Sequence record: PV287714.1
Source of the DNA: Escherichia phage HMD-9
Strand: one strand, 5' to 3'
Length of the DNA stretch: 64,000 bases
Every line of letters begins with the position of its first letter. Within the stretch, counting starts at the first letter, position 1. The position numbers and the translations under genes were made by a program. Below the pieces are notes generated by a model. It was not told the DNA's origin. It did not search any database and worked only from the letters and a program-made list of their open reading frames with translations. Of the stretch, positions 1-4,860 are shown in pieces.

Positions 1-631
<631 letters not shown>

Positions 632-1087
632 TTAAAAGAGGCTGTTCATTATTCGGTAAAGTGAAGGACCCATCACATATTGCCACTGAGTACGAGGAAT
701 AAGAGCAAAAGCGTCCATCTCTGGAATCATAACGCCATCTTTATTTTCAAAATAAGACTCACAATGGCAATTTCTAAACATCTCATGCTCTACTGGAATC
801 GTATAATAAAATAACTGTAAGTCTTTATTACTAGAATATTTAAATACACCTAGGTCTTCTAGAAGGTCTGGATTATAATTGCTAAAACCAGTCTCTTCTA
901 AGCATTCTCTTCGTGCTGCATCTAGTGCGCTTAAATCAGAGTTTTCTACGCGACCCTTTGGAATATCCCAGCGATGTGCCATCATTCCAGGCTTACGAGA
1001 ACCAGTAACCCGACCCATAAATAAATCTTTATCTTCTGTCATAAAGATAATACCAGCTGATAAGGGTTTCATTTTAATTTCCTGCAT
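632..1087 (-). CDS. nudE: Nudix hydrolase (T4 e.1/NudE-like)
   Basis: 151 aa; Nudix box GRVENSDLSALDAARRECLEETGF; immediately upstream of e as in T4. Confidence 0.85.
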   Translation of the reverse strand: MQEIKMKPLSAGIIFMTEDKDLFMGRVTGSRKPGMMAHRWDIPKGRVENSDLSALDAARRECLEETGFSNYNPDLLEDLGVFKYSSNKDLQLFYYTIPVEHEMFRNCHCESYFENKDGVMIPEMDAFALIPRTQWQYVMGPSLYRIMNSLF

Positions 1088-1557
1088 TCAGTGATAAAGT
1101 TATTTAAATTTTGAGCATATTTCTTTTCATCAAAAATCTTTTGCTGTCTGCGTAAACGCCATGGCATTTCAATGAACATACGCCATATTCCTGATAATAC
1201 TGCTGCTGTAAAAATATTAACAAGTATAGTTAAAAGAATCCAATCGCCTATTCTGTCCATTGGATTTTTTATAAAAAAGTAAAATACGAATGATGATATA
1301 GGAAGACTAATGATATACCACAGAAGAACCTTCTTATCTGTGAACCAATCAGCATTTGTTAACTTAGCGCAACCATTTTGAATACACACGAATTTATCAT
1401 CTGTTACAGTAAATGGCTTAGCTGCTTGATATCCCATTCTAAACTCCCTAATTAATCGTTTCTTTGTATCTTCGGAACAACCATTCCAGTCAACTCTATC
1501 AACTGGAATGCCATCATCCCCATCATCTAAATCATACCAGCGAGTTTTTAAAATCAT
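1069..1557 (-). CDS. hypothetical membrane protein (e.2 position), two predicted TM helices
   Basis: 162 aa ORF; hydrophobic stretches LLWYIISLPISSFVFYFFI and WILLTILVNIFTAAVLSGIW; ATGA-coupled to neighbours. Confidence 0.6.
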   Translation of the reverse strand: MILKTRWYDLDDGDDGIPVDRVDWNGCSEDTKKRLIREFRMGYQAAKPFTVTDDKFVCIQNGCAKLTNADWFTDKKVLLWYIISLPISSFVFYFFIKNPMDRIGDWILLTILVNIFTAAVLSGIWRMFIEMPWRLRRQQKIFDEKKYAQNLNNFITECRKLK

Positions 1558-1916
1558 TTAATTTTCCTACAATCACTCACAAACTCTTTCACTGATTCAT
1601 TTTCAATATAAGACATGTAGTTGTTATATTCTTTTAATTGTATTTTGTAATCCTTTTTTCTTTGCCAATTTATTTTAAAATTATCATAATGAAAATATAA
1701 TATAATACCAAAAAATGAAAACAATGAAATAATTTTGGTATAGTGAAGTTCACTCCAAACTTCTGTTATATTTACTGTGCCGTCGATGTTTAAAATAAGA
1801 CAGTCAATTAACAATCCAAAAAGACTACCCGCAAGAGCTGCAGCCAACGCCACAGCAAAAATTAAAAATGACTCAGGAAGCGAATATTTGACTTTATTTA
1901 GTTTTGGCTTTTGCAT
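1554..1916 (-). CDS. hypothetical small membrane protein (two TM helices)
   Basis: 120 aa ORF, ATG start at 1916-1914, ATGA overlap with downstream ORF. Confidence 0.6.
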   Translation of the reverse strand: MQKPKLNKVKYSLPESFLIFAVALAAALAGSLFGLLIDCLILNIDGTVNITEVWSELHYTKIISLFSFFGIILYFHYDNFKINWQRKKDYKIQLKEYNNYMSYIENESVKEFVSDCRKIK

Positions 1917-2290
1917 CGTGATTCCTTAACAAATTTCATAATTTCATCAAATTCATACATATCAAGTTTAAGCTGGTGTTCCTTTTTAATCTTTTTACAC
2001 TGTGCTTTCCAATCACGTACGCGTTTACGATAATGTCTTCCTTGATACCAGTATCCTACCCAATTTACAGGTACTAATAAAAATGGAATTATTAATGGAA
2101 GAATTAGCATTAACACAAGTATTTCACCAGAATCAATATCAGTCATAACATCTAAAACACCTCCAATAATCAATAGAATTACAAATGATATGAGTATAAC
2201 AGGACCTATTAACACATCAGTAGGAATTAGCTGGCGCTTTAGTTCATACTTCAAAGGTTTACTTGGAAGGTATAGTGATGGCTTTGACAT
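1898..2290 (-). CDS. hypothetical small membrane protein (two TM helices)
   Basis: ORF-track start at 2311 is TTG; first ATG with SD (AGGAATGTAGAGAAT-ATG) is at 2290, giving MSKPSLYLPSKPL.. Confidence 0.55.
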   Translation of the reverse strand: MSKPSLYLPSKPLKYELKRQLIPTDVLIGPVILISFVILLIIGGVLDVMTDIDSGEILVLMLILPLIIPFLLVPVNWVGYWYQGRHYRKRVRDWKAQCKKIKKEHQLKLDMYEFDEIMKFVKESRCKSQN

Positions 2291-2867
2291 ATTCTCTACA
2301 TTCCTTAACAAATTTTTCTAGTAATAAATCGCTTTCAAAACTAGGATTTTCCACGAATTTATCAAAAAGATCATCAACAATATTCAAGATATTCCTTTTA
2401 CTAAGAATACATTTATTTTCATGCTTCGTTTCAGAGTCAATTATAAGAGTAAAGAAATATTTCTTTCCCTGAAATTTTACTGTAGTATCAATATAAAATA
2501 AATTTGACTTTTGTAAATTACGTTTAAACCATGCGTCGCTTAAACTATAAACACCGAGATAATCAAAATCGTCGTTTAAATAACAAACTGACCATTCAGG
2601 AGAAATGAAATCAGTAAATTCAACATCAAAATCACATGTTAATGAATGAATTGATTCAATACTTTTAATGAGTATTCCAGGGCGTATTAAAGACTTTTTA
2701 CCTCTGGAAAATCTTCCAGAAAGACTTTCATCAGTTTCATATGAAGACCCCCAATAATAATTACGTCCTTCTGCCATACGTTTAAGAGCATTTAGTAATT
2801 GATCTGGAACATCAACATGTCTTTTGAACTCTTCAAACATTGAATTGAAATCACTTTGCATTTTCAT
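2259..2867 (-). CDS. hypothetical protein (e.x accessory block)
   Basis: 202 aa ORF with ATG start; no recognisable motif. Confidence 0.6.
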   Translation of the reverse strand: MKMQSDFNSMFEEFKRHVDVPDQLLNALKRMAEGRNYYWGSSYETDESLSGRFSRGKKSLIRPGILIKSIESIHSLTCDFDVEFTDFISPEWSVCYLNDDFDYLGVYSLSDAWFKRNLQKSNLFYIDTTVKFQGKKYFFTLIIDSETKHENKCILSKRNILNIVDDLFDKFVENPSFESDLLLEKFVKECREYVKAITIPSK

Positions 2868-2888
2868 TCCTATTTACTCCAAGTAATA

Positions 2889-2902
2889 GGGGCCGAAGCC
2901 CC
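2889..2902. repeat. GC hairpin GGGGCCGAAGCCCC (UUCG tetraloop on the minus-strand transcript), copy 1 of 3
   Basis: perfect 5-bp GC stem plus 4-nt loop; identical 14-mer at 43312-43325 and 62630-62643. Confidence 0.6.
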
Positions 2903-2908
2903 TTATCA

Positions 2909-3502
2909 TTATTTCAGAGAATTAATATATTCCTGGACATCGGCAGAGGTAGTTTCAACCCCAGAAATATTGCCGTTAAAAGTTTCAACTCGAGCAAGGG
3001 TATCTTCAATATCAACCTTAGTCAGTGCTGCAATTTCAACTACATCATCGGCAGTACTAATTCCAAGGGCATTTGCCGCACGAGTTTCACGGATATATTC
3101 CAATTTAACTGCAAGTTCTTGGCGAGCATCATCTAACTCAACTACTTTCTTGGCGATTTCAATTCGCATTTCAGCATAACCGTCAGCTTTAGTAGTCAAT
3201 TGCTCAGCTGTTCGACGATATAGCAAACCGAGTTTAGCGTGCATTGTTACATCTTGACCTTCGGAAAGAAGTTTACGAATTTCACGCTCTTTTGATTCGG
3301 CTTGTCGATTCTTTTCAATAACAAGTTCACGAATACGTTTTTCTTCATTAATAGATTTAACAGAAGCAGTTTTTAAGTCTTTAATCTTATCAAGTAGTTT
3401 TGCTGCTGCAGCAGTATACTGTTCTTCAACAGATAGATTTTTAGCCATAGCAGAACCAAGTTTAGTGCGAATAAACTCAACAATTTTCTTCAGTGTGTTC
3501 AT
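2909..3502 (-). CDS. coiled-coil protein, possible PspA/IM30-like
   Basis: 197 aa; ATG with SD AAGGAAA; long charged heptad-like helices ([27 protein letters not shown]..) resembling PspA by eye only. Confidence 0.5.
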
Positions 3503-3546
3503 AGTATTTCCTTAGGTTAATTAAGATTTAAAAATCCGTGAGAATA

Positions 3547-3723
3547 TTATATTTCAAAGAGTTTATAAACTATTTCAACATCTCCTTTTGCCGCTTTATA
3601 ACCTTCAGCCCAAGATACAACCAAGTTTTTATCTGAAGATTCAAAGTCAGGCATTGGACTTTCATCAATGTTCACACAGTATGTTTCTTCATTTTCGTCA
3701 AACCAAATAGTTAAAATAGTCAT
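3547..3723 (-). CDS. small hypothetical protein (58 aa)
   Basis: ORF below the track cutoff; SD GGAGAAATAA before ATG at 3723-3721; MTILTIWFDENEETYCVNIDESPMPDF.. Confidence 0.4.
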   Translation of the reverse strand: MTILTIWFDENEETYCVNIDESPMPDFESSDKNLVVSWAEGYKAAKGDVEIVYKLFEI

Positions 3724-3791
3724 TTATTTCTCCGCTTCTGTGATTGTTTTGATAAATCTATAATAACACCGTCCTTGGCGTTTGTACACAA

Positions 3792-4055
3792 TTATTTCAT
3801 ATTATTGAAATATTCTTCTGCGATTTCGTCGTTATCATGGTAAACTTTAGAAGACAGTTTAACATAACCTTCAGCAGTGAACATGTTAATCACAACCTTT
3901 ACAGTATACCACTGACCGTCTTCATTACCCATTACTGCGTAAGTTTCAAACATCGGATGGTCAGGACCGATAACTTTAATATCATTCACTGTACGACCGA
4001 AATCTTCTGAAACGCATTTCATAAAGAAGTTGAACAGTTCGCCGTAATTATCCAT
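3792..4055 (-). CDS. hypothetical protein
   Basis: ORF-track start 4109 lies inside the upstream promoter; ATG at 4055 follows SD GGAGAATGAA (MDNYGELFNFF..). Confidence 0.5.
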   Translation of the reverse strand: MDNYGELFNFFMKCVSEDFGRTVNDIKVIGPDHPMFETYAVMGNEDGQWYTVKVVINMFTAEGYVKLSSKVYHDNDEIAEEYFNNMK

Positions 4056-4099
4056 TTCATTCTCCAAGTTGTTTTTCTGTATCAGTAGTTGATAGTTGT

Positions 4100-4129
4100 A
4101 TAGTACCACGGAAGAACATGGATGTAAAC
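4100..4129 (-). promoter_or_regulatory. T4 early-type sigma70 promoter (-35 GTTTAC, 18-nt spacer, -10 TACTAT)
   Basis: minus-sense GTTTAC-N18-TACTAT upstream of ORF 3792-4055. Confidence 0.5.
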
Positions 4130-4261
4130 AGTTTTGTGAAAAAAATTTTAAAAAGTTTTGGGGAATTCTAGGGCAGGGAGGGGCAATTAAAGGATAGGAT
4201 AATATATTATAAAGGATAGAAACTAAATGATGCCTAGAGAGGCCCAGAAAGGTCTAGATGC

Positions 4262-4288
4262 CAAAAAAGCCCTATCATTTAGATAGGG
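4262..4288 (-). terminator. rho-independent terminator after ORF 4297-4860
   Basis: hairpin CCCTATC/GATAGGG followed by U-run on the minus-sense transcript. Confidence 0.5.
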
Positions 4289-4296
4289 ATTTAAAA

Positions 4297-4860
4297 TTAT
4301 TTGCTTAGTTTAGTTATTATAGCTTCTGCGGCAGCTTTTAGCTTAGATGCGGTGTTAATACGATTTTTAATTTCAGTATACGCATCGCCAAGAACATCAA
4401 GGCTATCAGAATAAACACTTACACTATTGCGTTCGCTATTTGAAATAGAACCTTTAGTTTTACGATCAAAATCGGTATACACGTCTTGAAGATCGCGGGC
4501 TGCCTTCTTTGCATCATCCAATGCGTCAAGAGCTTTATTCAAAGCATTAACATATTTTTTAGTGTCAAACATATTCTTAGAAATTTTAACAGGTGCACGT
4601 TCAGGAGTAGCTAATGCAGATTTAGGAACCTGAGCGCCAGATGCCAATTTCTTAGAAATTTTGAAAAATGCTTTATTGAATTTATTTTCTTGACTCATTG
4701 TAAAAGAACTATTATCGATGTTGTACATTTCAATAGCTTTAGCTTTCCACTTAAGAAAATCGCCGCGGTCTTTTGGATCCAAGTGGAAGAATACTTTAGT
4801 AAGATCTGCTTCAGATGGTAATTTTGCTGCTTCGGTTAAAAATTCGGCATAGGTTTTCAT
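4297..4860 (-). CDS. internal-protein-like protein with capsid-targeting sequence
   Basis: 187 aa; N-terminus MKTYAEFLTE|AAKL fits the CTS pattern with a gp21-type cleavage context (LxE). Confidence 0.65.
   Translation of the reverse strand: MKTYAEFLTEAAKLPSEADLTKVFFHLDPKDRGDFLKWKAKAIEMYNIDNSSFTMSQENKFNKAFFKISKKLASGAQVPKSALATPERAPVKISKNMFDTKKYVNALNKALDALDDAKKAARDLQDVYTDFDRKTKGSISNSERNSVSVYSDSLDVLGDAYTEIKNRINTASKLKAAAEAIITKLSK

Follow-up and report, generated by a model that had tools for sequence, protein, structure and literature searches.

The e.5-nudE gene array and its C-terminal tails

We analyzed a 64,000-nucleotide (nt) stretch of DNA from Escherichia phage HMD-9 (record PV287714.1; hereafter, the window), in which the products of four consecutive small genes upstream of nudE (e.5, e.4, e.3 and e.2) end in similar peptides. 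The source DNA is that of a Tequatrovirus. Hundreds of T-even phage records match bases 600-3600 at 90-96% identity, the gene order is that of ime09 and T4, and e.2-e.5 are the T4 orthologues (e-segB region; PHROG matches 1e-59 to 1e-107). The proteins are members of the Pfam families Phage_T4_Y06O (PF26873, e.4), Phage_T4_Y06P (PF26876, e.5) and Phage_T4_Y06M (PF26896, e.2), as taken from precomputed matches of close homologues; these are separate families of unknown function. The features are collected in Table 1.

Table 1. Genes, tail codons, repeats and other features of the locus (aa, amino acids; TM, transmembrane; SD, Shine-Dalgarno sequence). Positions are those of the window unless a locus is named.
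Feature	Position	Strand	Remarks
Lysozyme e	107-595	minus	
nudE, NUDIX hydrolase	632-1072	minus	Pfam PF00293 at 8.7e-14, and annotations; last gene of the array, without the tail motif
e.2, 162 aa	1069-1557	minus	phrog_2203; soluble N-terminal domain, two TM segments, basic tail; end LNNFITECRKLK
e.3, 120 aa	1554-1916	minus	phrog_2330; end VKEFVSDCRKIK
e.4, 130 aa	1898-2290 (ATG 2290)	minus	phrog_2604; two TM segments, basic C-terminal region; end IMKFVKESRCKSQN
e.5, 202 aa, soluble	2259-2867	minus	phrog_2607 at 5e-107, T4 annotation; no TM segment; end LLEKFVKECREYVKAITIPSK
e.6	2909-3502	minus	
e.5 tail codons TTT GTT AAG GAA TGT AGA (FVKECR)	2295-2312	minus	5-22 nt upstream of the e.4 ATG at 2290
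e.4 tail codons TTT GTT AAG GAA TCA CGA (FVKESR)	1916-1933	minus	AAGGA is the SD; CGA-TGC holds the e.3 ATG (1916-1914)
e.3 tail codons TTT GTG AGT GAT TGT AGG	1566-1583	minus	AGGAAA (R-K) is the e.2 SD; ATGA stop/start overlap
e.2 tail codons TTT ATC ACT GAA TGC AGG	1081-1098	minus	AGGAAA is the nudE SD; ATGA overlap
Type-A repeat copy 1, AAATTTGTTAAGGAAT	2300-2315	minus	exact 16-mer, e.5/e.4 junction
Type-A repeat copy 2, AAATTTGTTAAGGAAT	1921-1936	minus	exact 16-mer, e.4/e.3 junction
Type-B repeat copy 1, GATTGTAGGAAAATTAAATGA	1554-1574	minus	left end of the T2-type e.2 deletion
Type-B repeat copy 2, GAATGCAGGAAATTAAAATGA	1069-1089	minus	right end of the T2-type e.2 deletion
GC-rich hairpin with UUCG loop, sense strand AGGGGCUUCGGCCCCU	2888-2903	minus	between e.6 and e.5, upstream edge of the overlapping array
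Extra 102-105-aa gene, Jiaodavirus-type Klebsiella phages	L029 4381-4689; L027 6748-7065		absent from the window

The open reading frames (ORFs) e.5/e.4, e.4/e.3, e.3/e.2 and e.2/nudE overlap by 32, 19, 4 and 4 nt, respectively. At all four junctions, the next ATG overlaps or precedes the upstream stop codon, and an SD (AAGGA or AGGAAA) lies 6-11 nt upstream of the ATG. By this stop/start overlap and the SD inside the upstream ORF, e.5-e.4-e.3-e.2-nudE is predicted to be a translationally coupled array.

An earlier note, made from the letters of the window, had described four overlapping ORFs with a common tail that also supplies the SD and ATG of the next gene. We find its four ORFs, their coordinates and their tails (KFVKECREYV.., KFVKESRCKSQN, EFVSDCRKIK and NFITECRKLK) to be as it gave them, and the overlap with the next SD and ATG is borne out at all four junctions. 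The e.4 tail has its Cys displaced (..KESRC..) relative to the other three. Scanning the 64-kb window in six frames, we found the motif F[VIL]xxCR four times: three times in these tails and once in a junk ORF. The remainder of T4 (1-66.6 kb and 129.5-168.9 kb), examined for ORFs of at least 35 aa, held no further strict match. The back-translated pattern TTYRTNNNNGANTGYMG gave 3 matches against 0.18 expected. The tail similarity is far above chance.

The same note had ascribed the tails to one repeated junction sequence. DNA repeats do exist at the junctions, but they form two separate pairs, and across the pairs only the amino-acid motif is common. The 16-mer of type A occurs in the window only at the e.5/e.4 and e.4/e.3 junctions. 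The type-B pattern GANTGYAGGAAANTNAAATGA (GAnTGYAGGAAAnTnAAATGA), of which 0 matches were expected, is confined to the e.3/e.2 and e.2/nudE junctions, and its two copies match at 18/21 positions. The conservation reaches well outside the SD, rather than reflecting the SD consensus alone.

Two annotation differences were noticed at the e.2/nudE end. The nudE start in the T4 annotation is an ATG within the e.2 tail codons (MQEIKMKP..; window 1072-1087); the ATG at 1072 is favoured by the AGGAAA SD and by most other annotations. The e.2 gene of the T4 reference (NC_000866 67475-67960; locus L016 1476-1961) is interrupted by a pair of frameshifts that compensate each other, and its annotation gives 102 aa; the tail NNFITECRKLK is still legible in the original frame. 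Either the laboratory strain truly has this lesion or the sequence contains an old error.

Tail conservation in other genera and codon turnover

The cluster is syntenic in four further genera (Mosigvirus, Gaprivervirus, Dhakavirus and Jiaodavirus), and the tail is present in each. Mosigvirus APCEc01 has QFIMECREYV.. in e.5, EFVKEIRCKSLNS in e.4, NFIKECRK in e.3 and RFITECRNLR in e.2, and an additional two-TM ORF ending in NFIKECRGK. Gaprivervirus VR7 has EFIKEIRNGTA (e.4), TFIKECKS (e.3) and SFIEECRK (e.2). In Dhakavirus dhaeg the tails are RFIAECREYAK.., EEFIKEVRNGTA, TFIKECKS and SFIEECRK, and a 109-aa ORF carries LFLEYCRS. Jiaodavirus KP179 and a Metamorpho-like contig have EFIKYCRE.. in the e.5-like and EFVKEVRRK in the e.4-like protein, together with WIRSCRK in a 98-aa and WIKEMK in a 108-aa TM protein. 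Between nudE and e, Jiaodavirus-type Klebsiella phages carry one more gene, for a soluble protein of 102-105 aa that ends in FIAKCRAK or FIAKCRRINTPIN.

The other-genus orthologues are 18-55% identical to the window proteins overall, with the tail kept. Window e.5 and Jiaodavirus e.5 have 18% identity overall and 10/17 in the tail, and Dhakavirus e.5 is alignable with window e.5 over the tail only. In the e.2 family, 5/6 motif positions are invariant, compared to 28/162 columns overall. Seventeen tails gave the consensus (L/I/V at -3)-E-x-F/W-I/V-K-E-C-R-K, followed by the protein end. Thus, a short peptide is common to non-homologous proteins and is conserved more strongly than the remainder of each protein. 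The motif lies 17-32 nt upstream of the next ATG in 16/17 tails and is nearly always 1-13 residues from the stop; the e.5 motif has its own stop 11-13 codons further on.

A second family of proteins with a common C-terminal end was seen in this variable region: the stretch between e.3 and e.2 of Mosigvirus, Gaprivervirus and Dhakavirus holds three to five small genes in tandem (65-101 aa), each ending in W(V/Y)xSSxxC and the stop codon (L017 3857-4651; L018 24-1283; L034 1352-2597).

Codon usage at the fixed residues separates the protein from the DNA. Among 22 tails, the conserved Arg is written with all six codons (AGA 5, AGG 5, CGA 3, CGT 3, CGC 1, CGG 1), Cys with TGT 8 and TGC 7, and Phe with TTT 15 and TTC 3. 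Such synonymous turnover at fixed residues points to selection on the amino acids and shows, together with the persistence of the tail in divergent orthologues and on proteins with no other detectable similarity, that the tail peptide is kept by selection on the protein. The nucleotide "coupling module" of the earlier note does not survive this comparison, as other genera write the same peptide with different codons, and on unrelated soluble proteins.

The tail codons also serve the next gene. K-E is mostly written AAG GAA, and these codons form the SD of the downstream gene. In tails that have S-D or T-E instead, AGG AAA (R-K) takes over as the SD. The tail segment is therefore doubly constrained, since the same codons encode the peptide and the SD. 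The compared region has 19% of its columns variable across 12 Tequatrovirus genomes, and the junction cores are invariant over 43 nt at e.4/e.3 (1945-1903), 38 nt at e.5/e.4 (2320-2283) and 23 nt at e.2/nudE. These cores span about -30 to +10 around the starts, the pattern expected from dual coding plus a start region.

Dual coding raises a question of whether the tails are relics of descent: one ancestral junction (tail, SD and ATG) would have been duplicated in tandem and spread by in-frame deletions and fusions, and the peptide, kept mainly by its second role, would have little or no function. Full-length paralogy of e.3, e.4 and Mosigvirus ORF171, the existence of fusions that transplant tails (a T2 e.3/e.2 chimera ending in ..CRKLK and an e.4/e.2 chimera, both described below), the tracking of the next ATG by the motif, the nucleotide-invariant cores and the lack of structure in three of four junction RNAs, as in good start regions, all speak for such an origin. 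However, residues that stay fixed while all six Arg and both Cys codons are used must be under selection themselves, and F, I/V, C and R belong to no SD. In Mosigvirus ORF171, FIKECR is written with AAA and CGA, so that AAGGA is absent; an added Gly codon makes GAGGAAAA, a new SD. In the Jiaodavirus 102-aa ORF, F-I-x-x-C-R is kept although K-E is lost and no start region is near, the next ATG being about 54 nt downstream (counted from coordinates); this ORF serves as a natural control. By our own count, about 29 other overlapping junctions in T4 1-50 kb have no such peptide. Thus, the SD explains K-E and not the whole motif, because the Jiaodavirus ORF keeps the motif without the SD pair and the other junctions have none. 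Codon turnover fits poorly with a relic, and we consider this origin doubtful.

The longest invariant run in the 12 genomes is elsewhere: 46 nt inside e.3 (1699-1654), encoding LYFHYDNFKINWQRKK. This run (window 1654-1701) overlaps two plus-strand sigma-70-like sites, TTGCCA-17-CATAAT and TTTAAA-16-TATAAT (10/12 each), and may be an antisense promoter.

Paralogy, topology and gene loss

BLASTP aligned e.3 with e.4 over the full length (23% identity, E 7e-4), and e.3 matched the e.4 PHROG (phrog_2604) at 2.4e-3. Both proteins start with M-x-K-P-x-L and have two hydrophobic segments, a basic juxtamembrane stretch and the tail; Mosigvirus ORF171 is a full-length paralogue of both. An e.2 profile built from three genera matched the e.3/e.4 profile over the last 16 residues only (hhalign probability 87%, E 4e-6), and BLASTP of e.5 against e.4 gave no alignable region, tail included. 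The idea that small membrane-protein genes were duplicated here is thus partly right: it holds for e.3 and e.4 as weak full-length paralogues, but not for e.2, which matches in the tail only, or for e.5, which does not align with e.4 anywhere. Duplication therefore explains at most part of the pattern.

Database searches placed these proteins in a small circle of relatives. The e.3+e.4 profile, run against 1.84 billion representative proteins, returned 12 clusters, all of the same kind; since this search was exhaustive, we consider the e.3/e.4 family to be narrow. Single-sequence searches of a large protein database found close Tequatrovirus relatives only, and the matches listed in a profile search of a large protein database were mostly close relatives. 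Pfam, PADLOC and PDB sequence searches on e.2-e.6 gave nothing informative, and an IMG/VR scan with nudE yielded few useful loci.

Two TM helices had been predicted for three of the four proteins, and this agrees with our analysis: e.2 and e.4 have two clear hydrophobic segments each, and e.3 has one strong and one weaker segment. The AlphaFold2 (AF2) model of e.3 has a helix at 14-42, a short loop helix and a long helix at 58-119 running from the membrane to the C-terminus, with a predicted local distance difference test (pLDDT) score of 82 overall and 85-91 over the last 30 residues. In e.2, e.3 and e.4, the N- and C-terminal regions are K/R-rich and the loops are acidic, so the tails of these proteins should be cytoplasmic, like e.5. 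We infer that the tails probably lie in the cytoplasm at the end of a long helix that follows the last membrane segment, with e.5 also cytoplasmic. On a helix, the hydrophobic residue at -3, F and C share one face.

A second conserved Cys was noticed in the e.4 orthologues of every genus, within (E/D)-W-(K/E)-x-(Q/K)-C just past the second TM segment (window 1999-2016, e.4 residues ~92-97); the tails of these proteins often have no Cys at the consensus position.

The junction repeats have been the site of gene loss. T2, JE01 and a ZN18-type contig lack e.2 exactly. Their e.3 ends in ..EFVSDCRKLK, with the last residues coming from the e.2 tail (an e.3/e.2 chimera), and its stop overlaps the nudE ATG. 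The crossover falls inside the 18/21-nt repeat, where 9 contiguous bases are common when e.3 has TGC, as in T4. At 80% identity or above, e.3 is found in 498 records and e.2 in 447; from these record counts and a junction search, the T2-type allele occurs in about 50 of about 500 Tequatrovirus records (~10%). An insertion of e.2 into the other phages was ruled out: a gene at the e.2 position lies upstream of nudE in Mosigvirus, Gaprivervirus, Dhakavirus and Jiaodavirus, and the absence of e.2 is therefore a deletion. Since the copies of the module share a reading frame, a crossover between two of them removes the intervening cassette in frame. A further rearrangement is present in the complete Tequatrovirus genome OP555981, where e.3 is deleted and e.4(1-31) is fused in frame to the C-terminal half of e.2 (locus L030 2501-2821); the two genes were joined in the first TM segments, at a short stretch of identity (..ATCAT..). 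In both the e.2 loss and the e.4/e.2 chimera, the joint has 5-9 nt of identity within the 18/21-nt repeat or a similar one.

These events would suit a recombination linker acting at the DNA level, a coding counterpart of PeSL cassettes that promotes swaps between co-infecting phages and leaves the peptide as a by-product. The exact loss of e.2 between junction copies in ~10% of the Tequatrovirus records agrees with this, as do the gene content, which varies by genus (e.3 and e.2 are separated by a block of ~3.6 kb in Mosigvirus, Gaprivervirus and Dhakavirus), and the PeSL precedent (PMC2839356, PMC4122927). Nevertheless, within one genome, identity between copies is unbroken over just 9-16 bases and one repeat pair is unlike the other, the conservation between genera is at the amino-acid and not the nucleotide level, and the e.4/e.2 chimera broke in a TM segment and not at a junction. 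Codon turnover again fits poorly, and we judge such a linker improbable.

A proposed common docking motif and its comparison with known systems

We also looked for signals in the RNA. Folding the junction RNAs, three of four were unstructured and no better than shuffles. At the e.3/e.2 junction (window 1537-1602), a hairpin encloses the e.2 SD and AUG (-10.9 kcal/mol, z -1.9). It is weak, with 9/200 shuffles folding at least as well, so we see no common junction RNA structure. An Rfam scan of window 500-4300 gave no match with E up to 1. Promoter-like sites numbered 18 against 17.9 expected, with none at the junctions, and terminator-like sites 6 against 1.4 expected, with none at any junction. 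GGAG, the RegB site, is absent from the four junction cores. A resemblance of AGGAAAUUAAAAUG to the RegA operator was also considered. A gp21 prohead-protease site (I/L-x-E) is unlikely, as the V/D variants do not fit it and the carriers are membrane proteins. The UUCG hairpin upstream of e.5 is unchanged in 12/12 Tequatrovirus genomes and has only a weak U tract after it.

The e.3/e.2 hairpin bears on a further explanation, in which the nascent peptide would act in the ribosome tunnel, slowing termination or elongation and promoting re-initiation at the overlapping start. By hiding the SD and AUG, the hairpin would make e.2 depend on upstream ribosomes. The motif is moreover conserved as amino acids, sits nearly always close to the stop and atop the next start, and is carried by unrelated proteins whose obvious common property is an upstream position in a coupled array. 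We still find this explanation unlikely. The e.5 motif is placed by the e.4 start and not by its own stop, and the Jiaodavirus 102-aa and Metamorpho-like 105-aa ORFs carry the motif with no overlapping downstream gene; a nascent-chain role fits poorly with an e.5 motif that follows the e.4 start and with an ORF that has no overlapping neighbour. The hairpin itself is weak, and the tail is not known to resemble any arrest peptide.

The reading that we favour, with a probability of roughly 55%, is that the four tails are copies of one reiterated, doubly coding C-terminal peptide module that probably serves as a cytoplasmic docking or assembly motif. The module, (L/I/V)-E-x-(F/W)-(I/V)-K-E-C-R-(K), is found on the proteins that a conserved array of overlapping early genes encodes in Tevenvirinae. 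It may link these co-translated proteins to each other in a single complex at the membrane, or tether each of them to the same partner.

Several observations weigh against this docking motif. The consensus Cys is often missing from e.4-type tails, and tails such as WIKEMK and FASEVKRK are degenerate. A hydrophobic-moment test on the 17 tails was weak (mean z 0.63), with no tail individually significant. The AF2 model of e.5, built from a shallow alignment, has a pLDDT of 43, so exposure of its tail is not readable from the model. As 16/17 tails lie within the start region of the next gene, the share of the conservation due to RNA is not fully separable from the peptide signal. Finally, the three T2-type junctions that were read are all identical, so the loss of e.2 may be a single historical event and not a recurrent one.

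Two bolder readings are put forward tentatively, at odds well short of even. In one, the tails would be an assembly tag that zips the array products into a membrane complex beside NudE, the NAD-cap/ADP-ribose hydrolase; three inner-membrane proteins and the soluble e.5, with more carriers in other genera, would be held together through the helix-terminal F-I-x-E-C-R. In the other, the nascent peptide would promote re-initiation.

About half of the T4 genes have no known function, e.2-e.5 among them. Our literature searches on e.2-e.5 found nothing, and neither the literature nor the family descriptions searched mention that e.2-e.5 and their relatives end in a shared motif. No other part of these four to six neighbouring proteins is as well conserved across five genera as the tail, which is thus a concrete, mutable handle on their function. 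Either the assembly tag or the nascent-peptide reading, if true, would be a first lead to the function of this block of T4 orphan genes; in the latter case, translational coupling would also gain a new mechanism. The locus further shows, in a natural setting, how three constraints (peptide, ribosome-binding site and recombination microhomology) can be layered on ~20 nt, and its in-phase repeats let the phage drop a gene with the neighbours undamaged.

Coupled overlapping genes, paralogues among small membrane proteins and deletions between repeats are nothing unusual in T4; the shared tail is modestly new. Ordinary coupled genes in T4 and bacterial operons have the same ATGA-type stop/start overlap, with the SD inside the upstream ORF, but unlike the e.5-nudE array, their junctions impose no shared peptide.

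PeSL elements are intergenic units of a promoter and a terminator (PMC2839356; Comeau et al. 2014, PMC4122927). As with PeSL, a short sequence is reiterated here at the gene boundaries of a variable region, and recombination between copies removes e.2 cleanly. In contrast to PeSL, the e-cluster repeats lie inside coding sequence, have no promoter or terminator signal above chance and are conserved as a peptide.

The sliding-clamp-binding C-terminal tails of T4 gp43, gp33 and gp55 are, like the e-cluster tails, short peptides at the extreme C-terminus of proteins with different folds in one phage. Their sequence is unrelated, and the e-cluster carriers differ in being encoded side by side and in being mostly membrane proteins. 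The classical rII deletions of T4 have their end-points between short direct repeats, and the e.2 loss and the e.4/e.2 chimera are likewise joined at short repeat identity. The e-cluster repeats differ from these in that they keep phase with the reading frame and contain the start of the following gene, so that the neighbouring genes stay intact.

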